A stretch of 62,869 nucleotides of DNA from Candidatus Hermodarchaeota archaeon (GTDB taxonomy: Archaea > Asgardarchaeota > Lokiarchaeia > Sigyniarchaeales > SOKP01). Each line of letters opens with the position of its first letter. Positions within the stretch are counted from its first letter, which is position 1. The stretch lies in the NCBI GenBank assembly GCA_048885525.1, contig JBHLLP010000018.1, positions 1-62,869 on the forward strand. The letters run 5' to 3'. The notes beneath the pieces were generated by a model that saw only the letters and a list, made by a program, of their open reading frames with translations, was not told where the DNA came from and did not search any database. The position numbers and the translations under genes were made by a program. Positions 7,057 to 44,317 of the stretch are shown piece by piece.

Positions 7057-7344
7057 ATGCCCGAAGAATTCATTGAAGATAAAAATGGGATGAAAATCCG
7101 TAAACTGGCGGAGCTAAGAACTGTCACTAATAAAGATTATGAAGAAGCTATGATTAGGCGAGTAGATGAATTCAAGGAGCAAAAAAAGGAAAAATCTCAG
7201 TTTAACGATGTCCTTCAAAATACGTTTTTTAAAGCTTTAAGTACTGCTTTCGATTTAAAAGTCCAAGTTGATAAAGCACTTGGAGAGGAGAACTTAAAGA
7301 AACTTCATAAAGCTATAGATGACATTCTTTTATTAGGGTTATAG
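7057..7344 (+). CDS. Hypothetical helical protein directly abutting tes
   Basis: ATG immediately follows the tes stop codon; GGAGGAG upstream. Confidence 0.75.
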   Translation: MPEEFIEDKNGMKIRKLAELRTVTNKDYEEAMIRRVDEFKEQKKEKSQFNDVLQNTFFKALSTAFDLKVQVDKALGEENLKKLHKAIDDILLLGL

Positions 7345-7459
7345 TTTTTCAAGAAATCCTATTTTTTTTAATTTAGCATTTTTTTCAACATTCATATTTC
7401 ATATCTTATTAGTTTAAAATTATAAATAGTCAAAAGAGAAATAATAATTAAACAGATTT

Positions 7460-25660: not shown

Positions 25661-26842
25661 ATTAAAATAGAATATTCTGAGAGGATAAAAAGACTTCCAA
25701 CATATATTTTTCTAGAAATAGAGCAATTATTAGAGGAAAAGAGGAAGAAAGGTGTTGATCTAATACCATTAGGAATTGGAGATCCTGACTTAAAAACACC
25801 CGAATTGATCGTTAATGAATTGATTAAACAGGTAAAGAACCCAAGTAATCATAACTATCCTTCAAGTATGGGAGAAGAGGATTTCAGAGAAGCGGTTGCT
25901 CGATGGTATACAGTGAGATTTAATTTAGATTTAAATCCTAAAGATGAAATTTCAAATGTAATAGGAGGTAAAGAGGGGGTGGCAAATATTACTCGAGCAT
26001 TTATTAATCCAGGGGATGTTGTACTTTGTCCTAATCCAGGATATCCGGTTTATGAGAATGGAGCAACAAAATTGTGCGATGCGGAACCATACGTAATGCC
26101 TTTATTGAGAGAGAATCAATTTTTACCTGATTTAGATAATATTGATAAAAACATTCTTAGAGAAGCGAAATTAATGTATTTGAATTATCCAAATAACCCT
26201 ACTGGTGCAATTACACCAATAGAATTCCTAAAAAAAGCAGTTGATTATGCTGAAGATTATAATTTTTTTATAGTCCATGATAATCCTTATTCAGAGTTTA
26301 CTTTTGGTGACTATGTTGCACCATCGATATTACAGATAGATCAAAACCATGTTGAGATTAATAGTGCTTCTAAAATGTTCAATATGACTGGATTTAGATG
26401 TGGATGGGTTGCAGGTGATAAAGATATTATTAAAGGATTAAGAAAGATTAAGTCTCAAATTGATTCTGGTTGCCCAATGTTTATACAAAGAGCCGTAATT
26501 AAAGGATTGAATGAATATAACTCAACTAAAAAGCCAAATATCGTCCAAAAGACAGTTGAGATATATCAAAAACGAAGAGATATTCTAATTAAAGGATTGA
26601 ATGATATAGGGTGGAAAACAGACACCCCTCAAGCAACCTTTTATGTATGGACCCATGTTCCCGATAAATATGTGTCTATTGGATGTATGGAGTTTGTGAA
26701 GAAATTAATAGACGTAGGAGTAATTGTCACTCCTGGTATAGGTTTTGGTCAATATGGAGAAGGATTTGTAAGATTTGCTTTAACTCAACCAGAAGAAAGA
26801 ATTCTAGAAGCATTAAATAGAATTGAAACTATTCTAAATTAA
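25661..26842 (+). CDS. PLP-dependent class I/II aminotransferase, LL-diaminopimelate aminotransferase-like
   Basis: LGIGDPD in the extended N-terminus, NYPNNPTG, DNPY, SASKMFNMTGFRCG; start extended from 25805 to ATT 25661. Confidence 0.88.
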   Translation: MKIEYSERIKRLPTYIFLEIEQLLEEKRKKGVDLIPLGIGDPDLKTPELIVNELIKQVKNPSNHNYPSSMGEEDFREAVARWYTVRFNLDLNPKDEISNVIGGKEGVANITRAFINPGDVVLCPNPGYPVYENGATKLCDAEPYVMPLLRENQFLPDLDNIDKNILREAKLMYLNYPNNPTGAITPIEFLKKAVDYAEDYNFFIVHDNPYSEFTFGDYVAPSILQIDQNHVEINSASKMFNMTGFRCGWVAGDKDIIKGLRKIKSQIDSGCPMFIQRAVIKGLNEYNSTKKPNIVQKTVEIYQKRRDILIKGLNDIGWKTDTPQATFYVWTHVPDKYVSIGCMEFVKKLIDVGVIVTPGIGFGQYGEGFVRFALTQPEERILEALNRIETILN

Positions 26843-27489: not shown

Positions 27490-28812
27490 ATGAATAAAAA
27501 GATTGTATTAATTGGAGCCGGTTCGACTTCATTTGGTCCACCTATATTTAATGACGCTTATTTAAGTGAAGTTTTGGAGGGATCTACAATTGTTCTTCAT
27601 GACATTAATAAAAAGAAGTTAGAAATGATTTATGACCTATTACTAGTTGAAAACGACGCAAGAAATAAGAAATTCAACCTTGAGCGAACATGTAATAGGA
27701 CTAAAGCACTTAATGGGGCTGATTTTATAATTAATTCAATAGAAGTTGGAGATCGAATGGAATTATGGAGCCAAGATTATGAAATACCAAGGAAGTATGG
27801 TTCAACACAAATTTTAGGAGAGTGTGGTGGACCAGGAGGTACATTTCATGCATGGAGAATAATTCCTCCAATTATTGAGATTATAAATGATGTTGAGAAA
27901 ATTTGTCCTAATGCCTTTTTTATTAATTTTTCAAATCCCATGTCCCGTGTGTGTTTAGCAATTAAAAGAAGCGTAAAAAAAATTAAATTTATTGGCTTAT
28001 GTCATCAAATTGGGTTTATGATAAAGCATCTACCTAAGTTGTTTAATAAACCAATTAGTGAGTTAAAGATGAAAGTTGCAGGGCTCAATCATTTTGCATT
28101 TCTCTTAGGATTAGAGGAATTATCTACAAAAAAAAATTTAATGCCTTTTTTCAATGAAAAAGCCTTGAAGTATTTCATAGAAAATGAAGATAGATTCGAG
28201 TTCTCAACCCTTACATTTGAAGTTTTTAGGAGATTTGGATATTTTCCTTATGTAGGGGACAATCACTTGGGAGAATACCTTCAATTTGGTGAAGAATTCA
28301 CAGAAACTCAGGATATGGTTGATTGGATAAAAAGAATAGATAAAGAAGGTGAATTTTGGTATGAGAGATATCTGCATTATCATAAGAGAGTTAAAAGAAA
28401 TAAATATCCGAGAAAAGGAATTTTATCTACAAAACCTTCGGGAGAACGAGCCATTCCAATAATTGAAGCAATAATTAACAATAAGAATTCATATGAAACT
28501 GCAGTGAATATTCCTAACGACAATATAGTAGATAATTTACCAAAAGATTTAATCTTAGAATGTTCAGCTAAAGTAGATAAGAACGGTGTTCATGGAGAGA
28601 AGATAGGGACTTTACCTAAGAATATTGCGGCATTGCTTCGTATTGAGGCTTCAATACAAGACTTATGTGTTGAAGCTGTTCTAAAAAGATCTAGGGATAT
28701 TGCAATCGCATGTTTAGCCGTCGATCCGAATGTTGGAAGTTTCGAAATGGCAGAGAACATTTTTAATGATATGATTGAAATACAGAAAGGCTTTTTACCG
28801 AACTTTAAATAA
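27490..28812 (+). CDS. Glycoside hydrolase family 4 (NAD+-dependent, alpha-galactosidase-like)
   Basis: IGAGSTSF, GECGGPGG, NFSNPM, GLCH, AGLNHF. Confidence 0.92.
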   Translation: MNKKIVLIGAGSTSFGPPIFNDAYLSEVLEGSTIVLHDINKKKLEMIYDLLLVENDARNKKFNLERTCNRTKALNGADFIINSIEVGDRMELWSQDYEIPRKYGSTQILGECGGPGGTFHAWRIIPPIIEIINDVEKICPNAFFINFSNPMSRVCLAIKRSVKKIKFIGLCHQIGFMIKHLPKLFNKPISELKMKVAGLNHFAFLLGLEELSTKKNLMPFFNEKALKYFIENEDRFEFSTLTFEVFRRFGYFPYVGDNHLGEYLQFGEEFTETQDMVDWIKRIDKEGEFWYERYLHYHKRVKRNKYPRKGILSTKPSGERAIPIIEAIINNKNSYETAVNIPNDNIVDNLPKDLILECSAKVDKNGVHGEKIGTLPKNIAALLRIEASIQDLCVEAVLKRSRDIAIACLAVDPNVGSFEMAENIFNDMIEIQKGFLPNFK

Positions 28813-29106
28813 TCAATGAGTATTTACTAATTAAACCAAATTAAAGTTTTTTAATAAATTCTCTAAACCATTAGAATTTTTTTAAATTTTTATTATTCCA
28901 ATTACTTTTCGATAGTAAAGTTTTATACCGGTAATTTTTAGATTTCTACCCCTAAAATCTATGTTGTACTACTATTTTTTACGATTTACGAGTGAGTAAA
29001 ATAAAATCTTTTAAGTATACCTAATACTCTAGTAAATATACCCTAATATATTTATAAATGAATATTTACATAATTCTCACGATACAAATAACCATTATTT
29101 TGGGCA

Positions 29107-32100
29107 ATGGCATCAAAAAATAGTGATAATTCACAGGAACGGATTAAAAAAGCCACAGAAGCACTTCAGAAATTCTGGTGGTTTTCATTTTTTTTAGTTA
29201 TTGCTCCTTTAGTAGTAGCCATAGGTACTTTCTTAATTCTTAATTTCGCTAGAGCTGGCTTCTTAATTGCTTTATCTTTATCCGTTGTAAGCTTTATGTT
29301 CGCTTTACTTTTTTTTTATAAAGCTTTTGACAAATACAGAAATAAACCATTTTTTCTTAATAAAAGGAATAATCTATCAGCAAGAATTCATGTACTTTTT
29401 CTAATTTCTATCTTATCGTTTGTATCAACCCCTATTTTTATAATTATTTCTGGATTTGGTTCATTTTATCACCTTCCAGTAATAAGTTATTCAGTGCTTT
29501 ATAGTATTGTATATTATTATTACTATTTCCAACCTATAGATTTTTTTGACTTATCTAAGGAGGAATTCAAACACGCAGACAGTTTTAACTTAATAGCCAA
29601 GCAGCCATATAATTTTTTCGTTGGTATTAATCACTTTATTCATATAATTTTTTTATCATTTACTGCGTATACTAATTTATCCTGGCTTTTTGCTCTGACA
29701 ACAAATTTAATCTTTTACTTCATCACTTTAACAAGAACAAAGAGGCATGTTAAAGAAATCAATGAATCTATAGAAAAAAAAACGCCTATTCTAAAAGATT
29801 TAACAGTCTTTAAAAAAAAATTTGTAGTTTCGATAGTTGGCCTTATTTTTTTCTTATTGATTCAAATGCCATTTATTATAATTATAATTTTTAGCTTATC
29901 AGGAGTTCAGTATTCAAGCTTAGATCTCATAAATAATTCTTTTTTGACAATAATATTTATTCTATTTTATTTTAAATCTAGTTTTTATATAAACTATTAC
30001 TATGGCTCAAAAGTTGATCTTTATGATAAGCCAGAAAAATTAGAAGAATTTGATGGAAGTGCTCCTCCACTAAGTGCTAAATATCAAAGATACAATTCTT
30101 ATATGTCTATAATTTTAATACTATTAATTACATTATTCTCATTTCTGATTCAAATTCCCTGGTTAATGGTAATCATACTTCCATTCATTTATTTACTTCT
30201 GCATTACGAGCAGAAGTATAATCTATGTTCAAAAAAGTACAACAAATCCGTAGTTTTATTAAATTCTATTGCCCTTTTGATTTATATCTCTTTTGGGATA
30301 ATTCTCCCAACAATAAGAACCGTATTATTACACTTTCTTGTATTTTGCATTTCATTTTATATTGTTTTACAAGCGTTTGTTAAATTTGAGTATTTTAGTA
30401 AAGAAAATGTTTTAATAGTCCAAAATCTTCTCGCAGTTGCTAGTTTTACTTTATTAGTGTATTCTTTTTTTCCGATAATTATTGTTGAATATATTTCTTA
30501 CACATTAGATCCAGTTGTTTCAAATATTCTCCTACATACATTAATTATTTCAGTGGTCTTTTTAATCTCTCAATATATTATGGGAGTAAGATATTTCTAC
30601 AGTAAATCCCCAAAATTATTCAGAATCATTGTTTTAATAAATAGTATTTTAGTTGAGTTATTTGTTTTTACCTTAATTTTATTTAGAAATTATTTCTTGA
30701 TCGAACTAATACCTTTTCTACAAGGAATTTTAATATCTTCTGTGTTATTTCCTATTTTTTTCATCCTTTTTCTTTATTTAAATTATAGTTTACATGTATT
30801 CCCCTTAAAATACTTTTTAAAATTATGCTATTTTACTCTCTGGATATTTATGGTTAACTTTTTTGCATTGTTATTGATATTATCTCTAACTACTAACTAT
30901 TATATTTTAATCCCTATAGATTGTATCATCACATCTATTCTTTATTACTTTATATCTAAGTTTGGATTCCAACAGGAAAGAATAGATGAATCCAAATTTA
31001 AAAAGCGGGTCAAAATAAATTCTTATTTATTAACTATTGAACTTTTTTCTCTATTTAATTTGCTGTTTTTCAGTGCTTTTCAAGCACTTTCATTGGTTGA
31101 GAATATAATTTATTCAACATATCTATCACTGGCACTAGTTTGTGGGTTGATTAACCTATTTTCAAAAAGAGAGATATTCTCTGAAGATCTTTATATCAAA
31201 ATTAATACATTTATTCTGTTATATACCTCTATTATAGCATTTTACTATTTTCTGTTGCTAACAATTGATATTCTTTTTGTTTTTATAATACCTTTGATGG
31301 TTTCTAGCATAATTTTTTACATACCAATTTTATACTTAAGGAAGAAAAAGCTCTATCCTAAATTCATTAGTAAAACAATAAATATTAATGCTATAGTATT
31401 GTCGACCACAATATCATTAATTCCAACTATAACAGGGTTGCAATTATACTTTTTGGGCATATATTTTGACTTAATTTTCTTAGTTTTGACAGTGATTAAT
31501 TCTACACTATATATTTTATTAGTAATATTCACAATCGTATACGCTGTATTAAAACAACCCAATAGTGTCCAAAAACGTGAAAAAAGAATTCAGAAATTAC
31601 AAATACTCATATTATTTTGTATAAGCGGTACAACAATGTTTTATTATCCTTACTTCTTATTAATCAAATTCACATATTATTCCATTGTCTTACCTTTAAG
31701 TTTTACTTCCTTATTCCTATATATTCCTCTATTTATCTCATATAAACATAAAATTTTCAATGTTGAACATATAAAAAGAGCAATTATATTCAATACCATA
31801 ATTCTAACAGGATTGATTACTTCGATCCCCCTACTAATAGGCCTGAATTTGCTTTGGTTAGGTCTAGTTGTTGATTTTAACATATTTGTCTTGAATATTT
31901 TAAATTCTTCCATATATATCTTCTACATATTCTTGTTAATTCTCATTAATTTATCCAAAAAGGTTAGTATCAAGGATAAATTCGTCTTATTTTTAAATCG
32001 TTTAAAAATTGTCATCTTATTTGGTGTTTCTATCACAACTGTCTTTTTTTATCCCTTTTTCCTACTAATCAACTCCCTATATTATATTATCTTACCTTCA

Positions 32101-35100
32101 ATTTTTACTTCCTGCTTCGTTTATATTCTTTTGTATTATTCCTATAGAAAGGTAATTTTCAATGTGGAACATTTAAAAACTGCAATTGTTTTAAACACAA
32201 TGATACTGACAGGATTTTTTACTTCGATTCCAATACTTATAGGATTGAATATATTTTGGTTAGGTCTTGTTGTTGATTTCAATATTTTTATATTGAATAT
32301 TGTAAATTCCTCCATTTATATCTTCTATGTATTCTTATTAATTCTAATAAATATTTCGAGAAAGCTCAATATAAAGGAAAAATATTTACTAGATTTAAAT
32401 AGACTTAAAATTATTTTATTATTTTGTATTTCTTTTACGACTATTTTCTGTTATCCTTTTTTCTTATTAATCAATACATTTCATGGAATATTCATTTCAA
32501 TAATATTGCTCCTATTTTCTTGGTTCTTCCTATTTTATTATTCTTATAAACAAGAATATTTCAATTTGCAATTTGTAAAGAAGATAACAATCTATAATTT
32601 TATTACCTTCTCTTGTTTGATTATCTCTTTACCGACTATTATAGGTTTAGAATTGACGAGAATAGAATTAAGCGTCAGTATTGAACTTATAATAACTATA
32701 ACCTTATTGTTACTTTTTAGTTTTCTCAAAATTTCTGAAGAAGTAAGTGTTAAGATCAAATTGAAAGAGAAATACATTAAACAATTTAAATTAGCAGGAT
32801 TATTTTCTTGGTTTTTATTTACACTTTTTATCTCATATTATATAGCATCAACATTTATTGTGGAACTTGTTTTTACTCCATTAACCTCTCTAATCTTAGC
32901 TTGTTCTTTCTTTAACTTCTTTATATTAAGTATATATACAGTGAGTCTTATATCCAAAAATTTCCCAGAATATTCAAATGTTAAATATTTTCAAGATTTA
33001 ATCATCTATGGAATAATTGTTTCAATTTCAAGTATTTTTACCTTTTTAGGGCTCTCGAGCGGGCTTTTTTCTTTTCTTATCTGGTGGCCCCCACTGTTAA
33101 ACATGTCTTTCTTAATTGGTTTCTTTCTGGCTGTTTTTCTTATATTTCTAAACGTATTAGATAAGCAATTTCAATTATCACAAACCAAAACTATTTCCAA
33201 GCTTGCTTCATGGTTAACTATAAAGATAATCATTTGTCTTTCAATTATATCACTTGCTGAGTTTTTAGGATTTCTATATTCTATCTTTAATAATATATTT
33301 TTATTTTCCTTAGCGTTCACCTTTTTAACTCCTATAAGTCTTTATATCTTAGAAAATTTGAGGTTCATTTCGTCCGAAAAACAAATACTACTGAAAAAGA
33401 TCACTTTAACAGTATTTATCTTATCTATTTTAATTTTGCACGTAGAATATCTTTATAATTTGATAAATTTAATCCCTATCTTTTACTTTAATCTTTTTGT
33501 AGAGATTACTGCTTTTGCGGTCAATTTATTATTATTTTTTTATTATTATAGTTTAAGATTTAACAAGAAAATAGAAGCAAAATCTGTTTTTGAATTATAC
33601 AAGGTCTATTTCACTTCTTTTTTCTTGTTTTTGAGTTTGTTATACTTTGGTTCAGTTCTTTCAATATTTCTTATTCTAATCACTTATTCATTAATCCTCT
33701 CTCGGAGGAGTATTTTACCTGGTTTTCGGTTTCTTTCATACTTCTTACTTAGTTATTATACGTTCCTAGAAATTATGGTTATTCTCAGTAGTTACAATAT
33801 CATAGTAGTATTAGATATTGCATTAGCAGGATTATATGTAATAATATATCTTCTGTCAATTAATGGGATCCTAATTTTCTCTATATTGCTACATATAAAG
33901 AAAAATAATAATCTTGAAAAGTTTACTTTATATTCTCTTATTTCTCTTTTGTCTTTTGTTTCATTAATGATCTACACTAATATCTGGCTTCTATATAACG
34001 TAACCATATCGCTTTTTCTATTATTCTTATTTATTGGAATTTTCTTCTATCGTCAAAAAGATGAGCGATATAAATGGTTTATCAAACCTTGTGTTCTTTT
34101 ATTTGTTTTTGATCTTATTAGCTTTTTATCATACTCTTGGTTGTTTAATAATTTAAACTTCGCAATTTACAGTCCAATTTTAACTTTAACATTAACAATA
34201 ACCATTACTGGATTGGTATTTATCCTGTTATATAATTCTTCACCAGCAAGATTTAGAAAAAGATCTTTTTATATTGTATTGTCATCAGTAATAGTCTCAT
34301 TTCCTACTTTCTTGTATTTTATTATCATTGCCTCTTTAGGAATGCCAATATTTTCTTTAGTTCCTTTAATTTTTGCGATCGATATTGGAGTTCTATTATT
34401 TTATGTATCTATAGGAATTTATCAATGGAAGATATCTTGGGCAATCTGGAAATCTGGGTGGTATGCTTGGAATATATTACCATTTGTTAACTTTTTTATA
34501 ATTTATCAAAGCCTTACTGGAATTGATGTATATACAAATTCTTTGAGATTTGGGGCATTCAGTGCAAGCGGATCGTTTATTTTATCAATTATTATTTGCT
34601 CATTATTTTTCTTTCCTGTAGTGTACACTAAAATCAAGAAACATTTTTCTAGAATAGTTTTTATAATTTGGGGTGAAAGCTTATTCTTGCTCTATTGGGC
34701 TAGCTTCAATTTATTTAAAACAGATTCTCCCTTAGATCTTTTGTTAAGAAATATTTCTTTTATTTTGTTTTCAGTTGTCTTATTAATACCATTGTTAATG
34801 GCATTTAAATATTGGAAAATAGTTTCAATTCTTTGGATATTTCCTCTAACAATTATTAATGCTACATTTCTATTTTTCTATTTATTCTCAATTGATATCT
34901 TATTGGAAATGACTGTCGCAATTGACATTTTAGTAATAGGGTTATTTCTAATAGTTTATTCGTTTTTCCCAACTATTAGATCAATTGGTGTTATTTTAAT
35001 AACTGCATATTTCATTACTCTACTCGGCATTTTCTTAACAGTCTACTTCATTTTGTATCTGATCTTATTGAATCCTATTTTCTCATTAAACATCAGCTTT

Positions 35101-38100
35101 CTCGTAGTAGGATTCAGTCTTTTTTCCTCTAAATATGTTGAAGTTCCAAAAAGACTAATAGATTTGTGTCTTTCATGGATTCTAATTATCAATTTATCAT
35201 GGTTGACCTTTAATACATTCAATCTACTTCCGGGGTTATTAATATTTGCTATCTCATTAGCTATAACTGTATTCGGATGTTCCTTTTTTATAATTAATCG
35301 CTATAAAATGAAAATTTCTATAAATAGGATATTTCCGTTCTTAACAGTGGCATTTGGAACATCATCTTCAATCACATCCTTAAGTTATATTATATTTAAT
35401 ACAACACCTGGAATTTTAATTTCTATATTTTCTTCAGTGTTCATCATCTTTTTATATTTTACTTTCGTTGAATATCGCTATGTTCTGTGGTTTATTATTC
35501 CAATTCCTATAACAACTCCTATTTTAGAAGGAATGTTAGAATTTGAGGTAATAAAACCTTTCTGGCTTTTGACATGGGCAATACTTTACCTTCTCTCTTT
35601 TCAAATTATATTTAATTTATTTAAAAATGCTGTAAAGAAAGAATCTCAAGAAATAAAAAGAAGAAAAAAAAATAGTTTATTTAAGCTTTATCAGGATATG
35701 AATCAAGTGAGATGGCTTAATCTTACTTGCTTCTTTTTAAATTCGATATTTTTCTCTTTATTCATCGCCATAATTATTCCACAATTATTACCATATTTAG
35801 TGTTCTCTCATATTTTGTTTGTTTACCAAATTTCTGATTTTCTAATTATCTGGCCAATCTTATTTTTGATTTGTTTGAAATATGTCGAAAAATCAAAATT
35901 GAATTTGAAAGTAAAAGATTTCAAGCGTTTTTTCAGCAAAATTAGTTCAATTTTATATCTTGTAATACCTATTGGGGTGGGTATTAATCTTATGCTTTAT
36001 ATGGTTCTCACTAATACGAATCCCATCATTTCAATTTATATTCTATTGCTAGGTGTTAGTGGTTTAGTTTTCATAGAAACATCCTTTATAGACAGGACAA
36101 TATTACATTTCTTATCAGATATCACTCAGAACTTATTTATTTTATGGTCTTGGATAGCATTGAGTAATAGTTTTTCACTTTTCCTTTTCTTATTTCATTC
36201 AGACTTATTTTTGTTAGTTTTAATGATATCCCTTCTGGGACTCATTTCTGTTCAATTCTTATCTTATTTTGATGTTCCTAAAAAAATAATTTCTAAAAGT
36301 CGTTTAACATTGATTTATAATGCTTTTATTTGGAGTTCATTATACGTAGCATCTATAATCTCCGATGGTTTGATACTAATCTTTGAAGAATTAGCAGGTA
36401 TTCCTCAATATTTATTGTTATATCAAAATTCCTCAATTATTTTATATATTTTGAGCGTAATTTTTGTTAGAATTGAGAGAAATTTAAAAAATAGAATAGA
36501 ATTTATTCTTTTCATTGTATTTCAAGGATTACTTCTTATAAATTTATTCTATATATTCATTATATATGGTATTTTAAACTTTTTCTCAATTAATTTAGTT
36601 ATTTTTATAGAGGTATGTCTTTCATTCATTTCTATTTATTATTTCAATACAATAATAGCAGAGCGAAAATATCCAAATTTTAAACCAAAAATGCATGAAC
36701 TTCTAATTTTGATATTATATTGTGAAATAAGTATTATGAGTTATGCTTTATTATATGCAGTTATAGGAATTTATCAAAACCTGATTACAGCTCTTTCTAT
36801 ATTATTCATTCTTACAATAATTGAAATTTACTCAATTAAAAAGATCAAAACTGGTTATGCACGATTAATTCACACTATCAGTTTCCTAGCAATTTCGGTA
36901 ATAGTATTTTTACTTTTATATAGCTATATCTCTCAATATCCATTCTTTCTTGGTTTAGGTATTTTTATTTTTATGATAATGCAGTTCTATACTAATTATT
37001 CTCTATTTAAATCATTAGAGGAGATATTCCCGAAAACTCAAGCTACTTTTAAAAAAGATCAAGTTATAATTCAACAATTAATCGGAACAGCTTTTTACGG
37101 GACTATATGCATATTCTTAGCACAGATTTTAAGTTTGTATAGAGTAGAATTACAATTAATCCTTTTAATTTTAAGTCTTATAATCCATGGATTAATGTTT
37201 GTAGATAAATTTTTATTTAAATTTTTAGGGAAAATTGCGAATTATGTTCAAGTAATATCGTGGCTCTCTATTATGACATTTACATCAACCTTTCTCATTT
37301 GGTTATATAGTTTCTATTTCATTGCTTTCTTCTACGTAGTTATTCCCATCATAGTAATTATCCTACTCCTTGAGTTTGCTTATCTAATCAAATTATTAGC
37401 TTTTTGGAGATTCACTGCTACCAATAAAGAAAAGATTAAATTTATATTGGTACTAATATCGTATCTTAATTTTATAACTTGGCCGTTATATTTTGCTTCC
37501 TTTACGTTATATTTTGCTTCCTTTAAATTATTATACATACTTAATTTAACACTTGTATCTTTTATCATCATGTTTTTGATAACTTTAATTGATAAAGTTA
37601 TAAAGGAGGAACTCAGAAAATCCTTAAGATCATTCTCAATTCTAATGATAGGGGGTTTATTATCTATTGATAGTTTCTTATTGCTGAATTCTGTTCCTAA
37701 TTTCGATATTTTTTTGAATTTAACAATTTCTTCTTTAATTATACATGTATTAATGCTACTAGATAGCTATGTGTTGAAATTTATTGGTAAAACCACTAAT
37801 TCTATTAAAATTTTATCGTGGATCTTAATTATGATTTTCACATCGTGGTTTTTTAGTGTTTTTTGTCTAAGCATCTCTTATGCATTAATCCCATTCATTA
37901 TGATTATGCTTATCATAGAATTTACCTATCTCTTCAAATTATTGGCATCTTGGAAATTTGTCGCTTCTAATAAAAAGAAAATAAAACATTATTTAGTAAT
38001 ATCAACATATCTTAATTTTATTACTTGGCCGTTATATTTTGCTTCTTTGGATCCTTTTCATGTTCTCAATTTAGTGTTAGCGTCTTTCTCCATTATGTTC

Positions 38101-39018
38101 TTCTTGAGTTTAATTGATACAGTCATTAATGAAAAACTCCGAAAATCCTTGAGATCTTACTCATTTCTCATAATTGGAGGGTTATTATCAATTGATTTAT
38201 TTCTAACGTTTTATTTTATTTTGAATCTTATATTTTTAGGTTTAAGCATATCTGCGTTAGTTTTTGTGATTTTCCTTGGAATTGTAATAAAACCATTTAA
38301 AGGACACTCAGCTAGAGCTTTAATATTTTGGATTGTAATATTTCTGTTGTTAAGTTCAATAATATATCATATATCATTATCTTTTGTTGCTGCTGGAATA
38401 TTTTTTGCTTTTACCGTTTTAATTTATCCTTTTGTTTTCCTTTTGGAAGAACTTAGAGAACTAGTTAATAAAATTATTGGAGCTTTTACAAGATTTTTGA
38501 ACCATCTCAAAATATTAATTAAGAATATATTTATTAGATTATTGGTTTTTCTCAAAAAGCATTTCAAATTCATTTGGATCATTATTTGTGCAATTATTGC
38601 TTCATTTAGTGGTATTCTTTTTTCTGATCTGATTTTGGGTCTATTAAACCCCTACCACTCCATTCTTCTAGTATTCCCGGTTTTTGGGATATTATTTTCT
38701 CTTAAACCTTCTGAGAAAACTGAAGATGTTGACATAATGTTTAGACGGAGAATGCTTCGTTTAGTTACTAGCTGGGGTAGCATTATAATAATTTTGTTTT
38801 CCTTTATGTTTGTTCTAAATGTAGAGGCTTATTGGTATGCTTTAGCCACTTGGATTTCGATATGGATTTTGGGAGCAATATTGTTGCCTTATATCATTTT
38901 TAAAGAAAAAAGGGAAAATATTTCGATTAAATGGAGATTTTATACTTTAATAATATTAATTAGCATGCTAATTTTATTTGGAATTATTGTTGGTATTCAG
39001 ATTTATATGAATATCTAA
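29107..39018 (+). CDS. Giant polytopic membrane protein (3303 aa, about 100 TM segments), function unknown
   Basis: Uninterrupted 9.9-kb ORF of hydrophobic hairpins separated by Lys/Arg-rich loops; internal repeats. Confidence 0.88.
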   Translation: MASKNSDNSQERIKKATEALQKFWWFSFFLVIAPLVVAIGTFLILNFARAGFLIALSLSVVSFMFALLFFYKAFDKYRNKPFFLNKRNNLSARIHVLFLISILSFVSTPIFIIISGFGSFYHLPVISYSVLYSIVYYYYYFQPIDFFDLSKEEFKHADSFNLIAKQPYNFFVGINHFIHIIFLSFTAYTNLSWLFALTTNLIFYFITLTRTKRHVKEINESIEKKTPILKDLTVFKKKFVVSIVGLIFFLLIQMPFIIIIIFSLSGVQYSSLDLINNSFLTIIFILFYFKSSFYINYYYGSKVDLYDKPEKLEEFDGSAPPLSAKYQRYNSYMSIILILLITLFSFLIQIPWLMVIILPFIYLLLHYEQKYNLCSKKYNKSVVLLNSIALLIYISFGIILPTIRTVLLHFLVFCISFYIVLQAFVKFEYFSKENVLIVQNLLAVASFTLLVYSFFPIIIVEYISYTLDPVVSNILLHTLIISVVFLISQYIMGVRYFYSKSPKLFRIIVLINSILVELFVFTLILFRNYFLIELIPFLQGILISSVLFPIFFILFLYLNYSLHVFPLKYFLKLCYFTLWIFMVNFFALLLILSLTTNYYILIPIDCIITSILYYFISKFGFQQERIDESKFKKRVKINSYLLTIELFSLFNLLFFSAFQALSLVENIIYSTYLSLALVCGLINLFSKREIFSEDLYIKINTFILLYTSIIAFYYFLLLTIDILFVFIIPLMVSSIIFYIPILYLRKKKLYPKFISKTININAIVLSTTISLIPTITGLQLYFLGIYFDLIFLVLTVINSTLYILLVIFTIVYAVLKQPNSVQKREKRIQKLQILILFCISGTTMFYYPYFLLIKFTYYSIVLPLSFTSLFLYIPLFISYKHKIFNVEHIKRAIIFNTIILTGLITSIPLLIGLNLLWLGLVVDFNIFVLNILNSSIYIFYIFLLILINLSKKVSIKDKFVLFLNRLKIVILFGVSITTVFFYPFFLLINSLYYIILPSIFTSCFVYILLYYSYRKVIFNVEHLKTAIVLNTMILTGFFTSIPILIGLNIFWLGLVVDFNIFILNIVNSSIYIFYVFLLILINISRKLNIKEKYLLDLNRLKIILLFCISFTTIFCYPFFLLINTFHGIFISIILLLFSWFFLFYYSYKQEYFNLQFVKKITIYNFITFSCLIISLPTIIGLELTRIELSVSIELIITITLLLLFSFLKISEEVSVKIKLKEKYIKQFKLAGLFSWFLFTLFISYYIASTFIVELVFTPLTSLILACSFFNFFILSIYTVSLISKNFPEYSNVKYFQDLIIYGIIVSISSIFTFLGLSSGLFSFLIWWPPLLNMSFLIGFFLAVFLIFLNVLDKQFQLSQTKTISKLASWLTIKIIICLSIISLAEFLGFLYSIFNNIFLFSLAFTFLTPISLYILENLRFISSEKQILLKKITLTVFILSILILHVEYLYNLINLIPIFYFNLFVEITAFAVNLLLFFYYYSLRFNKKIEAKSVFELYKVYFTSFFLFLSLLYFGSVLSIFLILITYSLILSRRSILPGFRFLSYFLLSYYTFLEIMVILSSYNIIVVLDIALAGLYVIIYLLSINGILIFSILLHIKKNNNLEKFTLYSLISLLSFVSLMIYTNIWLLYNVTISLFLLFLFIGIFFYRQKDERYKWFIKPCVLLFVFDLISFLSYSWLFNNLNFAIYSPILTLTLTITITGLVFILLYNSSPARFRKRSFYIVLSSVIVSFPTFLYFIIIASLGMPIFSLVPLIFAIDIGVLLFYVSIGIYQWKISWAIWKSGWYAWNILPFVNFFIIYQSLTGIDVYTNSLRFGAFSASGSFILSIIICSLFFFPVVYTKIKKHFSRIVFIIWGESLFLLYWASFNLFKTDSPLDLLLRNISFILFSVVLLIPLLMAFKYWKIVSILWIFPLTIINATFLFFYLFSIDILLEMTVAIDILVIGLFLIVYSFFPTIRSIGVILITAYFITLLGIFLTVYFILYLILLNPIFSLNISFLVVGFSLFSSKYVEVPKRLIDLCLSWILIINLSWLTFNTFNLLPGLLIFAISLAITVFGCSFFIINRYKMKISINRIFPFLTVAFGTSSSITSLSYIIFNTTPGILISIFSSVFIIFLYFTFVEYRYVLWFIIPIPITTPILEGMLEFEVIKPFWLLTWAILYLLSFQIIFNLFKNAVKKESQEIKRRKKNSLFKLYQDMNQVRWLNLTCFFLNSIFFSLFIAIIIPQLLPYLVFSHILFVYQISDFLIIWPILFLICLKYVEKSKLNLKVKDFKRFFSKISSILYLVIPIGVGINLMLYMVLTNTNPIISIYILLLGVSGLVFIETSFIDRTILHFLSDITQNLFILWSWIALSNSFSLFLFLFHSDLFLLVLMISLLGLISVQFLSYFDVPKKIISKSRLTLIYNAFIWSSLYVASIISDGLILIFEELAGIPQYLLLYQNSSIILYILSVIFVRIERNLKNRIEFILFIVFQGLLLINLFYIFIIYGILNFFSINLVIFIEVCLSFISIYYFNTIIAERKYPNFKPKMHELLILILYCEISIMSYALLYAVIGIYQNLITALSILFILTIIEIYSIKKIKTGYARLIHTISFLAISVIVFLLLYSYISQYPFFLGLGIFIFMIMQFYTNYSLFKSLEEIFPKTQATFKKDQVIIQQLIGTAFYGTICIFLAQILSLYRVELQLILLILSLIIHGLMFVDKFLFKFLGKIANYVQVISWLSIMTFTSTFLIWLYSFYFIAFFYVVIPIIVIILLLEFAYLIKLLAFWRFTATNKEKIKFILVLISYLNFITWPLYFASFTLYFASFKLLYILNLTLVSFIIMFLITLIDKVIKEELRKSLRSFSILMIGGLLSIDSFLLLNSVPNFDIFLNLTISSLIIHVLMLLDSYVLKFIGKTTNSIKILSWILIMIFTSWFFSVFCLSISYALIPFIMIMLIIEFTYLFKLLASWKFVASNKKKIKHYLVISTYLNFITWPLYFASLDPFHVLNLVLASFSIMFFLSLIDTVINEKLRKSLRSYSFLIIGGLLSIDLFLTFYFILNLIFLGLSISALVFVIFLGIVIKPFKGHSARALIFWIVIFLLLSSIIYHISLSFVAAGIFFAFTVLIYPFVFLLEELRELVNKIIGAFTRFLNHLKILIKNIFIRLLVFLKKHFKFIWIIICAIIASFSGILFSDLILGLLNPYHSILLVFPVFGILFSLKPSEKTEDVDIMFRRRMLRLVTSWGSIIIILFSFMFVLNVEAYWYALATWISIWILGAILLPYIIFKEKRENISIKWRFYTLIILISMLILFGIIVGIQIYMNI
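31270..32700 (+). repeat. Intragenic tandem repeat, 402-nt (134-aa, 4-TM) period, about 3.5 copies
   Basis: IFNVEH codons at 31753 and 32155; WLGLVVDFNIF...NSSIYIFY and YPFFLLI recur. Confidence 0.85.
37174..38200 (+). repeat. Intragenic duplication of an about 182-186-aa (6-TM) unit
   Basis: YLNFITWPLYFAS at 37462 and 38008; LRKSLRS and IGGLLSID each occur twice. Confidence 0.85.
37484..37525 (+). repeat. Perfect in-frame 21-nt tandem duplication CGTTATATTTTGCTTCCTTTA x2
   Basis: Read directly from the sequence; gives LYFASFT-LYFASFK. Confidence 0.9.
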
Positions 39019-39201
39019 TTTAAAGTTAAAGATTTCTAGTCTAGATAATGTTTTTTAACATTTTTTACTAATTTTGACATATTTATGCTAATGTTTCATA
39101 TAAAAAGTTGAAAACTTTAAATATATGTTAAAATGAACTATTATTTGAAAATCTAAAAATAAACATACATAACAAATTAAAAAAAAAATTTAAAAATTGA
39201 A

Positions 39202-40653
39202 GTGATCTTTTATATGGAAGCTTTAACAAAAAGAATATTGGCAATTGTTATCATAGCTGTTGTAGGTGTAGGTATCGGTGTTGGCGCTTGGATTTTCCTT
39301 TTAGCGCCTGGTGCTGGTGAATATTCATGGGGTTCTAAGGATTGTCCTGGTGCTCCGGCGGGAGTAGATCCAGATAATATTATAAAATTTGGAATTACTG
39401 GTGATATAGGTGAAATAACTGGAGATGGTGCTTGGGAAGGGGCCTGGCTTGCTGCATATGAAATAAATCAAGCAGGAGGAGTAGTTCTCAATGGTACTAC
39501 TTATTATATTGGGATTACAAGGGAGGATACAGATGAAGCTAATCCTAATTTAGTTACATCGCGAGGAATTGCAGCAGCAGAGAGATTAGTTTATAATAAA
39601 AAAGTTCAATTCGGTATCGGAGGTTTCAGATCAGAGGCATTATTAGCATATCAAGAAGTTTTCATGGATAATGAAATCATCTTTATCGGCACTGGTGCTG
39701 CTACAGATGTATTTTGTGAAAATGTGAGATCCTGGTATACAAGATATAAATATTTCTGGAGAACTATGCCTATAAACTCAACCGCTTTAGGAGGTCAAAT
39801 CTTTGCTTATCTTTTTACAATGATAGCTGTTTTGAACGGAACCTTTTCAGGAGAAATTCAAAATCTTGGAATAATTTACGAAGACTTAACCTGGACAGAA
39901 GATTTGGTTGCTGCTGTGAGTTATTACTTTGGACCTTATGGACCACTTCCAGCATATAAAAATATGCTTAAAGCAAGTATCGCATATGATGTTACCTTAA
40001 CTGCTGCAGACATGCTTACTCATGTGAATACACTTATAGCAGCTGACTGTGATATTGTAATACCCGTGATATCCGCTCAAGGTGGACTTATGATGATGCA
40101 GCACTATGCCACTCTTCAACCAAACTTTTTGGTTATAGGTATTGATGTACAATCACAGTTGGATACATTTTGGACCCAGACTAATGGAGATTGTCTATAC
40201 GAGATTGTCATGCAAAGCATACACGTAACTAATAAAACTGATACTACATTATCCTTTTGGAACGCTTTTAGGGCTAAATGGGGTCATGATCCCCTTTATA
40301 CAGCATCAGGTACTTATGATGCTTTAAATTTTCTCGTATGGGCAATCGAAGAAACTCAATCATTAAGAGCATGGCCAGATCTTACTTTACAAATGGAGAC
40401 CGCCACTAAAGCAAATGTACTTGCGAATCCTGGAGACTTTCCTGGAAGTGTTGGTGGACTAGGGGCTTTTTGGCCTGAAACTCATGATCTTGTTGCAGGA
40501 TTTCCATATGGATATACGCTATGGGTTCAATGGCAAGCAAACGCAACTAAAGTGATCATGCCATCATATGGCTCCTGTTACATTGATTCTTACCTTACAA
40601 ACATAGGAATGTGGGCGATACCACCGTGGGTTCTTACTGATTGGACTACATAA
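39202..40653 (+). CDS. Branched-chain amino acid (Liv-type) ABC transporter substrate-binding protein, N-terminal TM anchor
   Basis: GAWLAAYEINQAGG, GGFRSE, YDA; first gene of the liv operon. Confidence 0.88.
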   Translation: MIFYMEALTKRILAIVIIAVVGVGIGVGAWIFLLAPGAGEYSWGSKDCPGAPAGVDPDNIIKFGITGDIGEITGDGAWEGAWLAAYEINQAGGVVLNGTTYYIGITREDTDEANPNLVTSRGIAAAERLVYNKKVQFGIGGFRSEALLAYQEVFMDNEIIFIGTGAATDVFCENVRSWYTRYKYFWRTMPINSTALGGQIFAYLFTMIAVLNGTFSGEIQNLGIIYEDLTWTEDLVAAVSYYFGPYGPLPAYKNMLKASIAYDVTLTAADMLTHVNTLIAADCDIVIPVISAQGGLMMMQHYATLQPNFLVIGIDVQSQLDTFWTQTNGDCLYEIVMQSIHVTNKTDTTLSFWNAFRAKWGHDPLYTASGTYDALNFLVWAIEETQSLRAWPDLTLQMETATKANVLANPGDFPGSVGGLGAFWPETHDLVAGFPYGYTLWVQWQANATKVIMPSYGSCYIDSYLTNIGMWAIPPWVLTDWTT

Positions 40654-40864
40654 TTAAAAAAATAAAATCCTAATTTAAATAATAAATATCATCTTTTTTT
40701 TTAATATTTATAAAAATATAATTTCCTCTTTATTTCATAATTTTTTTAAATAGATTTAATTATATTTTTGTCCAGAAGTAATAGAAGAGTTAGCTTTATA
40801 AAATATGAGATAAAATATAATTATATACAATGTATATTATGAAAAATCTCTTGAGTAAATAATT

Positions 40865-41764
40865 ATGGCTACAATTGGTATAGATATAATGAACATGTTA
40901 TTCAATGGTACTTTAACAGGTGCTGTATACGCATTAATTGCAATGGGATATTCATTAGTCTATGGGGTAGGAGGTATAATGAATTTATCACATGGAGCGT
41001 ATTTTATGTTAACTGGATATTTATTATTATGGATGCTGCAATCTCCATTTTTCTTAGGTCTTGAATGGTTAACTGTTATTATTGCCTTGATTGTAATTAC
41101 AGTTATTGGAGGACTTACATTTTTACTTTTAATAAAGCCTTTACAAGATTCTCATGTAGCTGTGGTAATAGCTACTTTTGGATTAGCGTTCTTGTTAGAG
41201 CAAATAGTTATTATTTCTCCCTCCGGAACAGAAGTATGGTCTATTGGTCAATTAGAAGTGCTTCAAGGATTTACGATGGTTTTAGGATATCCTATTGTTC
41301 ATCAGTATGTTTTTCTTATCATTATGTCTATCATAATTGTTTTATTATTTGCATTATTCATTAATAAATCCAGACTAGGGAAATCAATTAGAGCTGTCTC
41401 ACAAGATCGTGAGGCTGCTGAACTTATGGGGATAAATTCTAACAGAATTCTCTTATATACTGTTATGATTTCAGCACTTCTAGCGGGTGTAGCTGCTTTT
41501 ATGTATTTACCGGGAGCTTCATTAGATGGCCCTGCTATGGGTTGGGGATATTTAACAAATTCATTTGCAATCGTGATTCTTGGAGGGATGGGAAGTCTGG
41601 TAGGAAGCGTAGTTGGAGCTTTTATTGTTGGTTACATAATCCAATTTACTAATGTTTTTATTCCCAATGGTCCATCCTGGGCTCATTTGGTACCAATAAT
41701 AATTATAGTTATAATACTTTTAATAAGACCTCAAGGGTTATTTGGAAAGAAAGAACTTAGGTAA
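40865..41764 (+). CDS. livH: Liv-type ABC transporter permease
   Basis: YALIAMGYSLVYG, NLSHG, LGKSIRAVSQDREAAELMGIN, RPQGLFG. Confidence 0.93.
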   Translation: MATIGIDIMNMLFNGTLTGAVYALIAMGYSLVYGVGGIMNLSHGAYFMLTGYLLLWMLQSPFFLGLEWLTVIIALIVITVIGGLTFLLLIKPLQDSHVAVVIATFGLAFLLEQIVIISPSGTEVWSIGQLEVLQGFTMVLGYPIVHQYVFLIIMSIIIVLLFALFINKSRLGKSIRAVSQDREAAELMGINSNRILLYTVMISALLAGVAAFMYLPGASLDGPAMGWGYLTNSFAIVILGGMGSLVGSVVGAFIVGYIIQFTNVFIPNGPSWAHLVPIIIIVIILLIRPQGLFGKKELR

Positions 41765-41784
41765 TAGAAGAAAAAGAGGGGAAG

Positions 41785-42846
41785 ATGAAAATGTTAAATT
41801 TAAAATTATTAAAAGAAAAGGTGAATGAATTTCCGCGTTACTTAAAGTCTTGGGTTAAAACTTTCACTGGTAGTTTAACAATATTATGTTTATTCATACT
41901 TTTTGTTATGCCATTTTTTTCTACTAATCGAAGTTTTACGCATGTTTTCCTGCGCCAATTTTCACTAGCTATGATATTTGCAATTTTTGCTGCTAGTTGG
42001 GATCTTCTAACTGGTATCTCAGGACAAATAAGTTTTGGACATGCAATATTCTTTGGAATATCAGGATATCTTTGTGCTTACTTAGTTAAATTTCAACATT
42101 TCCCGATATGGTTATCAATAATTTTAGGTGCAGTGGGGGCTGTGATTTTTGGTTTAGTGATAGGAATTCCATGCTTAAGACTAAAAGGTCCATATCTAGC
42201 ATTAGGAACTCTCGCAATGAGCTTAATACTATTAAAGTTATTTTTAATGGGTTCATTAGAACCTTGGCTTTTTGGTTCGGAAGGAATACCAGCAATTCCA
42301 AGGTGGACTGATAGCCCAGTAGTAGAATATTTTATAATATTTATTTTTATGATATTTACATTTGTTGCTTTAATTCAAATATCAAAATCTAAATTCGGCA
42401 CCATTTTAAAATCAATTAGAGATGATGAGACAGGATCTGGTGCATCAGGAATTAATACTACGAAATATAAAGTTTATGCTTTCATGTTAAGTTCTTTATT
42501 CGCGGGGCTTGCAGGTGCTTTCTATGCTTTTTATATTAGAGCCGTAAACCCTACGGGAAACTTTGGTACGGTCATTTCATTTTTTGCAATTCTAATGGCA
42601 TCCTTAGGTGGAATAGCAACAATTTCTGGAGCCGCCCTAGGTGCATTTTTCTTTATCTTTCTTGAATATGCTCTTATTGAAATTGGAGTTGTGGAGATTG
42701 GGAATTTAGCAATCGATTTTGCTCTTTATAAATTTGCAATTTTTGCTGTAATATTAATAATTATTATTCGCTTTGCTGAACATGGTATTTTAAGACCTTT
42801 ATTGGAACGTTTAAAAGATCTATGGGATGTGTTGTTAGGGAGATAA
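41785..42846 (+). CDS. livM: Liv-type ABC transporter permease
   Basis: GQISFGHA, LRLKGPYLAL, IRDDE...GIN. Confidence 0.93.
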   Translation: MKMLNLKLLKEKVNEFPRYLKSWVKTFTGSLTILCLFILFVMPFFSTNRSFTHVFLRQFSLAMIFAIFAASWDLLTGISGQISFGHAIFFGISGYLCAYLVKFQHFPIWLSIILGAVGAVIFGLVIGIPCLRLKGPYLALGTLAMSLILLKLFLMGSLEPWLFGSEGIPAIPRWTDSPVVEYFIIFIFMIFTFVALIQISKSKFGTILKSIRDDETGSGASGINTTKYKVYAFMLSSLFAGLAGAFYAFYIRAVNPTGNFGTVISFFAILMASLGGIATISGAALGAFFFIFLEYALIEIGVVEIGNLAIDFALYKFAIFAVILIIIIRFAEHGILRPLLERLKDLWDVLLGR

Positions 42847-42878
42847 TATATAAATAAAGTTATCAGAGGGATTAAATT

Positions 42879-43619
42879 ATGGGTGTTATTTTAGAAGTTA
42901 AAAATTTGACTAAAAAGTTTGGTGGTTTAACAGCTGTTAACGATTTTAGCTTTGAAATTAAACGAGGAGAATTTGTTGGGTTAATAGGTCCAAATGGTGC
43001 TGGAAAAACCACTGTATTTAATTTAATTAGTGGTTTTGAAAAGCCAAGTTCTGGGAAAATTCGATTTGACGGAATGGATATTACTGGAATGCGTCCGTAT
43101 AAAATTGTTAACAAAGGAATTGCAAGAACCTTTCAATTAGTTAGATCATTTAAATTCTTAAGTATACTTGACAATGTTCAAGTTGCATGTCTTTCAAAAA
43201 GGGGTAAAAAAGTGTCAAAAAAGGTAGGAACTGAAGCCTATGCTAGTTCAATACTTGCATCATCCGGTCTTGTAGATAAAGCTAGAATTCCCCCAATCAT
43301 TTTACCTCATGGTGATTTAAGAAAGTTACAGATTAGCAAAGCTCTTGGAACTAATCCCGAGTTACTTCTTCTTGATGAACCATTCAGTGGTCTTTCTCAC
43401 GAAGAACAGTTAGTTATTACAGATTTAATTAATAAATTACATTATGATGGAGTTACAATTTTTATAACAGGTCATGTTATGCGTGAACTTATGACATTAG
43501 TTCCCAGAGTAATTGCTATGCATCAAGGAAAATTTATAGCTGATGGTCCTCCTCGCGAGGTTGCCAATAATAAAATTGTATTAGAAGCATATTTAGGTAG
43601 AGGTGAAGCATTTGCTTGA
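42879..43619 (+). CDS. livG: Liv-type ABC transporter ATPase
   Basis: FGGLTAV, GPNGAGKTT, ARTFQ, LLLDEP. Confidence 0.93.
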   Translation: MGVILEVKNLTKKFGGLTAVNDFSFEIKRGEFVGLIGPNGAGKTTVFNLISGFEKPSSGKIRFDGMDITGMRPYKIVNKGIARTFQLVRSFKFLSILDNVQVACLSKRGKKVSKKVGTEAYASSILASSGLVDKARIPPIILPHGDLRKLQISKALGTNPELLLLDEPFSGLSHEEQLVITDLINKLHYDGVTIFITGHVMRELMTLVPRVIAMHQGKFIADGPPREVANNKIVLEAYLGRGEAFA

Positions 43620-44316
43620 CATTAAAAAAATTTATCATTATTATGGTAAGGCAAGAGCTCTAGAAGAGATAAATTTGACTATAGAAGAAGAGTCTCTCGA
43701 ATCTGTTATCGGACCTAATGGAGCTGGAAAGTCTACTCTTCTTAGAGTTATATCAGGTTTAGAAGAACCTGATAGAGGAAAAATAATATTTCTTGGAGAA
43801 AGGATAGATGAATCAAAAGCTTATCGAATTGCTAGAAAAGGTATTGCCCACTGTCCAGAGCGTCGTAGATTATTCTATGATATGACTGTTAAGGAAAATC
43901 TTGAATTGGGTGCTTACTCACTCAAAGATAGGAAAAAATTTAAAGAATTACTTAATTTTGTATTTGAGTTATTTCCTCGTCTTGAAGAAAGAAAAAAACA
44001 AAGAGCTGGAACATTAAGTGGTGGAGAACAACAGATGCTTGCTGTTGCACGCTCATTAATGTCCAATCCGAAGCTTCTTTTGATGGATGAACCATCTTTA
44101 GGATTAGCTCCAAAAATAAAAGAAGCTATATTCGAAGCTATTCAACAAATAAAAAAAGAAGGTACTACTACTTTGTTAGTTGAGCAGGATGCTGTTTTAG
44201 CAATGCAAGTCTCTGATTATATTCATGTTCTTGAAGAAGGAAAAATTGAAATGAGAGGGACAAAGCAAGAGTTAGAAAAAGAACCTCGTATAAAACAAGT
44301 ATATTTAGGAATTTGA
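43603..44316 (+). CDS. livF: Liv-type ABC transporter ATPase
   Basis: GPNGAGKST, LSGGEQQML, DEPSLGLAP; true start possibly TTG 43612. Confidence 0.93.
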   Translation: MKHLLDIKKIYHYYGKARALEEINLTIEEESLESVIGPNGAGKSTLLRVISGLEEPDRGKIIFLGERIDESKAYRIARKGIAHCPERRRLFYDMTVKENLELGAYSLKDRKKFKELLNFVFELFPRLEERKKQRAGTLSGGEQQMLAVARSLMSNPKLLLMDEPSLGLAPKIKEAIFEAIQQIKKEGTTTLLVEQDAVLAMQVSDYIHVLEEGKIEMRGTKQELEKEPRIKQVYLGI

Positions 44317-44317
44317 G

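Follow-up and report, generated by a model that had tools for sequence, protein, structure and literature searches.

A single gene in Candidatus Hermodarchaeota archaeon was found to encode a giant polytopic membrane protein of 3303 residues, predicted to span the membrane about 100 times and built almost entirely of helical hairpins. The gene lies on contig JBHLLP010000018.1 of assembly GCA_048885525.1, the 62,869 nucleotides of which are referred to below as the window. The encoded protein belongs to an undescribed family found in one order of the Asgard archaea (Lokiarchaeia, broadly defined), for which there exists neither a name nor a fold assignment. To our knowledge, no characterized protein packs so many transmembrane (TM) helices with so little else. 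As a tentative reading, given a probability of about 0.4, it is proposed that a conserved functional core is flanked by size-tunable in-membrane arms and that the protein conducts or senses in the membrane.

The gene is genuine and under selection, given its open reading frame (ORF), its 80 homologues, the 295 positions that are at least 80% conserved in a profile derived from an alignment of 72 sequences, the excess of synonymous changes in a strain variant and its presence as a single copy. In frame +1 of positions 29107-39018, no stop codon was encountered over 3,303 codons, whereas the other five frames contain 155-412 stops each. The probability of such a frame remaining open, as calculated from the base composition of the ORF itself, is ~1e-106. 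The single intact ORF originally predicted was thus confirmed, while the start methionine is common to 92% of the aligned homologues. When the genome was searched with a profile of the conserved core of the protein (profile A1), one copy was obtained (E 3e-250). At the DNA level, Logan contigs of 9,976 and 9,621 bases cover positions 29157-39132 and 29508-39128, respectively, with 0 differences and 0 gaps, although these contigs possibly come from the source samples and so represent a second assembly rather than independent DNA. As far as these contigs, which span the gene, show, there is no misassembly of the kind considered at the outset. In a further sample, the gene is covered piecewise by contigs.

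A strain-variant contig allowed changes to be considered at the codon level. Across codons 90-183, 33 codons are changed, 21 synonymously and 12 non-synonymously, with 22 of the 35 listed differences falling at third codon positions. This variant comes from another sample of the same study, one not flagged as a potential source of the window, and corresponds to window positions 28884-29692, where conservation of the gene, here near its N-terminal end, is lowest. It presents 41 differences over 809 bases. The contigs of the sample in question are identical outside that stretch.

TM helices were predicted by dynamic programming using the Kyte-Doolittle scale at the classical threshold of 1.6. 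In this manner, 97 helices were assigned (89-100 across thresholds of 1.8-1.4). Applied to other proteins encoded in the same window, the segmenter returned 11 helices for a member of the MFS, seven and nine for LivH and LivM and 0-2 for soluble proteins. AlphaFold2, run with family alignments, was used to model 52% of the chain, namely residues 1580-2180 (20 long and two short helices; predicted local distance difference test score (pLDDT) 80.8; predicted template modeling score (pTM) 0.60) and residues 2181-3303 (36 long helices; pLDDT 76.8; pTM 0.46). Because the 56 long helices modeled in these parts match the 53 assigned there by the segmenter, the whole chain is predicted to comprise about 100 helices, in agreement with the number first counted by eye.

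It is the segregation of charge, rather than the raw number of helices, that exceeds what would be expected by chance, and does so by far. Of the 97 helices, 72 are free of Lys, Arg, Asp and Glu, as compared to 15-32 in shuffled chains, while 27 charged residues are found within helices, as compared to 66-108. Likewise, uncharged runs account for 77 helix-lengths, as compared to at most 43 upon shuffling. The loops are similarly ordered, with 37 lacking Lys and Arg (mean length, 5 residues) and 50 containing at least two such residues (mean length, 22 residues). Calculated over the Lys and Arg content of successive loops, the lag-1 autocorrelation is -0.59, which 0 of 10,000 shuffles attained. 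As such, the pairing of helices into hairpins joined by alternating Lys/Arg-rich loops, as originally described, holds along the chain. Basic loops are cytoplasmic according to the positive-inside rule. By this rule, the tight turns free of Lys and Arg would face outward and the basic loops the cytoplasm, yielding ~50 hairpins. With turns of ~5 residues and basic loops of ~22 residues, nearly all of the mass of the protein would therefore lie inside the bilayer. Indeed, ~70% of the residues are predicted to belong to TM helices or to tight turns, corresponding to one TM helix per 34 residues, and the largest predicted loop comprises 55 residues. Ser, Tyr and Asn are abundant in many of the helices.

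Examination of the chain for internal repeats and conserved positions revealed a modular architecture (Table 1). The most conserved part, corresponding to residues 1600-2170, is unique, and no internal repeat was detected within the core by hhalign. Fifteen columns of the core are invariant, namely F1668, F1680, W1781, G1784, P1792, N1795, P1837, W1855, P1895, W1903, W1910, F1921, P1955, Y1968 and P2132. The core also holds a small outer beta-hairpin (residues 1812-1821) and a Pro-rich broken-helix segment (residues 2124-2143). The most conserved motif is a stripe of five Trp residues which, given their 4-3-4-3 spacing, would lie on one face of a helix.

Table 1. Features of the giant gene, its product and the adjacent genes (aa, amino acid residues; coordinates are window positions).
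Feature	Position	Strand	Basis or remark
Whole gene, 3303-aa giant polytopic membrane protein	29107..39018	+	ATG start, single copy in genome
N-terminal region, aa 1-631, ~17 predicted TM helices	29107..30999	+	Moderately conserved
Five ~134-aa repeats, aa 632-1278	31000..32940	+	Chunk BLAST, iterated repeat hidden Markov model (HMM), hhalign E 2e-35
Conserved non-repetitive core, aa 1580-2180, ~21 helices	33844..35646	+	Alignment A1, conservation profile, AlphaFold2
Trp stripe W1774/W1778/W1781/W1785/W1788, then P1792, N1795	34420..34491	+	Sequence, conservation 0.82-1.0
Older internal duplication, aa 2253-2390 ~ 2503-2631	35863..36999	+	hhalign probability 86-95%
Recent duplication of ~184-aa 6-TM unit, aa 2676-2860 and 2862-3083	37132..38355	+	Chunk BLAST, hhalign, alignment
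Basic amphipathic helix, aa 3114-3154, nine Lys/Arg	38446..38568	+	Hydrophobic moment 0.53-0.64, AlphaFold2
Cytoplasmic C-terminal motif E3267 ... S-x-K-W-R-F-Y, aa 3267-3279	38905..38943	+	Conservation 0.89-0.99
Family-4 glycoside hydrolase (GH4), directly upstream	27490-28812	+	
Liv-type ABC transporter genes, downstream: Peripla_BP_6 binding protein, two BPD_transp_2 permeases, two ATPases, then 473-aa HEAT-repeat protein	39202-45739	+	

The regions flanking the core differ in how they were built. In the N-terminal region, conserved residues include E368, Q439/N440, N559 and G620. This region is followed by an array of repeats that was detected by BLAST of chunks of the sequence, since comparing the whole chain to itself by BLAST gave only the identity match. 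Each ~134-residue repeat corresponds to four TM helices, that is, two hairpins, and the central copies are 65% identical. While five copies are present here, between one and seven were counted across the homologues using the iterated repeat HMM, and alignment occupancy is low at residues 750-1100, within the array. The protein thus does contain 4-TM units, yet only ~20% of the chain is recognizable as such an array. Moreover, the possibility that the whole chain is one long 4-TM repeat was considered in profile-profile comparisons of sequence windows and rejected, with repeats being confined to residues 632-1277, 1216-1395 and 2330-2491 (matching each other), 2253-2631 and 2676-3083.

On the C-terminal side of the core, the older duplication listed in Table 1 is accompanied by a second that relates residues 1216-1395 to 2330-2491 (hhalign probability 90%), with Q2473, E2502, E2540 and H2589 being conserved membrane-embedded residues in the region at 35863-36999. 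The more recently duplicated 6-TM unit is single-copy in most homologues and its extra copy is poorly modeled (pLDDT <50 at residues 2856-2955); H2694, D2700, E2756, D3004 and D3030 are conserved in this region. In each duplication, the number of helices gained is even. In the AlphaFold2 model, the amphipathic helix, which starts at the conserved E3114-E3115 pair, extends the preceding TM helix to form one helix of 59 residues (913-971 of the model) and is the sole sizeable extramembrane element. The KWRFY motif directly precedes the last TM helix. Conserved polar residues predicted to lie deep in the membrane are found along the length of the chain, namely Q439, N440, E645, N1631, N1759, N1918, N1995, Q2473, E2502, E2540, H2694, D3030 and H3184.

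To place the protein among known families and folds, a series of searches was conducted. No Pfam family was matched at E<=1 and no NCBIfam family was matched; together with the limited size of the loops, this agrees with the earlier view that the protein holds no soluble or catalytic domain. Against all Protein Data Bank (PDB) chains, sequence and profile searches yielded no matches, whether the core and the repeat unit served as queries (E<=10) or the whole chain and the C-terminal part (E<=1). The models of the core and the C-terminal part, both all-helical, were compared to the PDB using Foldseek, with nothing being obtained at E<=0.001; the top rows for both models, none significant, were TPR/HEAT alpha-solenoids (E >= 0.035; TM-scores ~0.1). 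VIA-align gave a best Z score of 8.9 with the core model and of 10.2 with the C-terminal model, neither of which rises above the noise range stated for helical bundles (below ~13). The top row for the C-terminal part was 7qru_F (Z 10.2; root-mean-square deviation (rmsd) 2.9 A over 91 residues at residues 2581-2683, corresponding to 401-503 of the model).

When the shape of the core model was used to search the ESM Atlas, the best match was an unnamed 1016-residue actinobacterial cluster (TM-score 0.49 by query). A DUF2339 row gave TM-scores of 0.29 (query) and 0.44 (row) over 235 residues with an rmsd of 5.7 A, and a DUF2157 row was also weak. A feature search of the same resource gave no usable match for residues 1-1600. 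For residues 2150-3303, scores of at most 0.82 were obtained with unnamed clusters and of 0.76 with DUF2339, all of which serve as leads only. At a cutoff of E<=0.01, the PF10101 (DUF2339) HMM recovered nothing from the genome as a whole but did find matches in control genomes. As such, with no Pfam, NCBIfam or PDB sequence match and no significant fold match, the protein does not resolve into a fusion of known transporter domains, a possibility raised at the outset, nor was any domain of known transporter or enzyme superfamilies, such as MFS, ABC, RND, APC or GT-C, matched in Pfam or NCBIfam.

To determine how widely the family is distributed, databases and genomes were next searched. A word-indexed search revealed 80 homologues of 1.9-3.7 thousand residues that share between 76% and 29% identity with the protein, all unnamed or annotated as 'hypothetical' and all 80 lacking a precomputed Pfam assignment. 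Among 1.84 billion cluster representatives, core profile A1 recovered 53 proteins, all family members or shorter chains, with most of the latter looking like fragments of full-length members. Stand-alone relatives of the 4-TM unit were sought among 5.8 billion proteins, yielding one match of 114 residues that is probably a fragment. Within the phylum, profile A1 matched 116 of 400 genomes, all belonging to the order to which the window is assigned. When sorted by family of this order, matches were obtained in 100/134, 1/1, 12/14 and 2/4 genomes of f1, f2, f3 and f4, respectively, with the other families shown giving 0. The orthologues in these 116 genomes, three of which are closed, are intact, being 2.5-4.9 thousand residues long and without internal stops in any instance. 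Across the family, 75-126 TM helices are predicted per protein. Accordingly, the family is uncharacterized and restricted to Asgard archaea, as had been supposed.

All three of the closed genomes considered carry the giant gene. These include those of Promethearchaeum syntrophicum MK-D1 (DSAG12_00898, QEE15075.1; 3940 residues) and Ca. Harpocratesius repetitus (MCF2139232.1; 4296 residues), in both of which the product contains no Pfam or NCBIfam domain. The closed genome of 6,035,313 bp encodes two paralogues of 4908 and ~3150 residues (open frames of 4920 and 3151 residues). The closed-genome orthologues, all annotated simply as 'hypothetical protein', are recognized by the core profile at E 1e-57 to 1e-68 and, like the window protein, consist of wall-to-wall hairpins, with 108-126 predicted TM helices; they differ in belonging to another family-level lineage of the order, in being 20-50% longer and in having different neighbors. 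In the MK-D1 culture, DSAG12_00898 was transcribed at 152 reads per kilobase per million mapped reads (RPKM), as compared to 203-317 for the adjacent genes (Imachi 2020, PMC7015854, Suppl. Table 3), meaning that at least one homologue is transcribed in culture. The expectation that homologues would be conserved was thus supported, with transcription being seen for one of these. A search of the literature revealed no paper addressing DSAG12_00898, the family or a many-helix Asgard giant.

Two further observations concern individual members of the family. The 6,035,313-bp genome, where the two paralogues were placed at 3431958-3433475 and 3672769-3674478, is the clearest case in this census of two full-length family copies in one genome. 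At one homologous locus, a gene call of 317 residues (7061-8014) overlaps the start of the 2712-residue giant gene by 14 bases; here, a frameshift may have separated the N-terminal part from the remainder, or else the start may have been wrongly called.

The protein was also compared to known systems. Piezo1 and Piezo2 contain 38 TM helices per chain, with nine 4-TM units in each blade. Like these proteins, the giant protein is a very large polytopic chain in which tandem 4-TM units flank a non-repetitive conserved module, a shared layout that invites the same logic of arms plus a center. By contrast, no sequence match to Piezo was found in Pfam or in PDB searches that included Piezo chains, nor was a Piezo row seen when the two modeled parts were searched for similar folds. 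Furthermore, Piezo presents a large extracellular cap, whereas the giant protein has none, its C-terminal model being all hairpins plus the amphipathic helix. The giant protein also has ~2.6 times more helices, is archaeal and is found in one order only. The original choice of Piezo as the most polytopic point of comparison needs qualifying, since up to 147 TM helices are predicted in Omnitrophota giants (preprint 10.64898/2026.06.07.730766). Those proteins, of 10,000-147,000 residues, are mostly extramembrane and multidomain (West-Roberts et al. 2023, 10.1101/2023.11.21.568195; 10.64898/2026.06.07.730766). Hence, while in both cases a prokaryotic protein of giant size is predicted to contain a very large number of TM helices, the Omnitrophota proteins contain ~1 TM helix per 1000 residues, whereas the protein considered here reaches its far higher helix density in 3303 residues and without domains. 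DUF2339 (PF10101), DUF2157 (PF09925) and the actinobacterial cluster likewise comprise hairpin chains without soluble domains and are weakly similar in shape to the core, yet TM-scores are below 0.5 and these chains are 3-10 times shorter. Finally, TPR/HEAT alpha-solenoids share stacked antiparallel hairpins but are soluble, and as the match is not significant, the analogy is one of local geometry only.

In the favored reading, the core, together with the C-terminal part and its buried carboxylates, would form the functional center, possibly offering a path for ions or protons or serving as a lipid or tension sensor across or within the membrane. The presence of an invariant core and of buried carboxylates argues for such a specific center, be it a conduit or a sensor. 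The hairpin arrays would act as in-membrane arms of tunable size, with topology being kept because helices would be gained or lost in even numbers. Cytoplasmic partners might dock at the amphipathic helix and the C-terminal motif, both of which are candidates for such a role.

Several points weigh against this reading. The function of the giant protein is pure inference, and buried polar residues can simply reflect hydrogen bonding in helix packing. The structural basis is itself limited, as pTM values are just 0.46-0.60 and the Trp stripe is modeled at low confidence (pLDDT 55-65). When the chain is scrambled at constant composition, 72-84 segments are still obtained, such that the raw helix count is largely compositional, while a Hessa-type scale, applied without its length and position terms and judged too stringent, passes only 13-51 segments, depending on the penalty applied. 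Near-complete genomes of the same family can lack the gene, which was found in 0/2 genomes of g7 (96% complete), 0/1 of g10 (97%) and 1/10 of g11, and is therefore dispensable in some lineages. Transcription was seen for the MK-D1 homologue; for the window gene itself, no RNA run containing this DNA was found among public runs, which is evidence neither way. Lastly, no conserved gene neighbor suggests a function.

Other explanations were weighed against the same evidence. Were the frame an artefact, misassembled or simply a non-translated frame that an AT-rich genome (window G+C content, ~29%) produced on its T-rich strand, the extreme composition of the predicted product (Leu, Ile and Phe together, 45%) and the T found at 52% of second codon positions would be in keeping with this. 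This reading is, however, judged to be refuted by the stop statistics, the intact orthologues, the Logan contigs, the synonymous excess in the strain variant and transcription of the MK-D1 orthologue. The highest-scoring VIA-align rows obtained with the C-terminal model, which correspond to 3-TM subunits of the MrpF/MrpG/NuoK type, bring to mind an origin from already known transporter modules, such as Mrp or complex I small subunits, by fusion or derivation and with divergence beyond recognition. Yet such a Z score lies in the noise range of helical bundles and concerns three helices only, no sequence match was obtained even with profiles and an exhaustive profile search returned only the family itself, all of which render this origin very improbable.

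A doubtful, albeit more serious, alternative is that the protein is an in-plane scaffold, in which a single chain would provide a raft of ~100 nm2 (an estimate assuming ~1 nm2 per helix) that stiffens, shapes or partitions the wall-less Lokiarchaeial membrane, for instance at protrusions, without conduction or catalysis and with the core serving as an assembly or packing hub. The near absence of extramembrane mass, a size freely tuned by hairpin duplication and the TPR/HEAT hairpin stacks seen as the nearest, if non-significant, Foldseek rows would all suit such a role, as would the gene directly upstream in MK-D1, DSAG12_00897, which encodes a flotillin-like SPFH/Band 7 protein (207-1442 of that locus; RPKM 284). 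This adjacency was, however, not found in the other loci examined, a bulk role would call for neither 15 invariant positions, Trp, Pro, Gly and Asn among them, nor conserved buried carboxylates, and the wedge shape expected, with the larger side being cytoplasmic, would not obviously favor outward tubes. A role in lipid handling, whereby the Trp stripe and polar grooves would serve a scramblase, a lipid or polyprenol platform or an organizer of tetraether and diether lipids, seems unlikely. Consistent with such a role, the Trp stripe is predicted to lie at the inner-leaflet interface, followed by an invariant Pro and Asn, many Ser, Thr, Asn and Tyr residues are conserved within helices and the protein lacks both a large pore-forming domain and a soluble catalytic one; against this, Pfam and fold searches gave no similarity to known scramblases, flippases or the GT-C fold and no lipid-biosynthesis neighbors are conserved. 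Similarly improbable is a self-contained in-plane membrane solenoid of ~100 helices formed by one polypeptide, an independent archaeal invention of a Piezo-like principle in which evolvable 4-TM arms would flank a conserved central module and which would sense or set membrane tension or curvature or else gate a conduit in the wall-less Lokiarchaeia, known to form protrusions. If true, the prokaryotes most closely related to eukaryotes would possess a membrane machine of a new class.

The hosts of the family are members of one Asgard order, whose unusual membranes and protrusions are central to present thinking on eukaryogenesis. The protein offers a test case for how such a chain is inserted and folded, for growth by even numbers of hairpin helices and for what role a protein lying almost entirely within the bilayer might play. 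With a homologue being transcribed in a culturable strain, study by proteomics, cryo-electron tomography and cryo-electron microscopy is feasible.

Examination of the genes surrounding the giant gene revealed that it appears to stand alone. A GH4-encoding gene is also found upstream of the giant gene in three homologous loci, while synteny between the Liv-type ABC genes and the giant gene is limited to close relatives. As both are kept only in close relatives, they were rejected as conserved operon partners. In other lineages, the neighbors include UxaE/UxaC, an FG-GAP protein, PGDH, hisG/hisD and SPFH/flotillin. In one such lineage, the hexuronate genes UxaE and UxaC occupy the position of GH4, an arrangement that may reflect leftover synteny of sugar-acid catabolism rather than a functional link. 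Further upstream in the window, an aminotransferase-encoding ORF (25805-26842, + strand) is predicted to yield 345 residues when read from a TTG codon, as compared to the 383-397 residues of its orthologues in three homologous loci, a difference in length that fits a true start lying upstream at a non-canonical codon.

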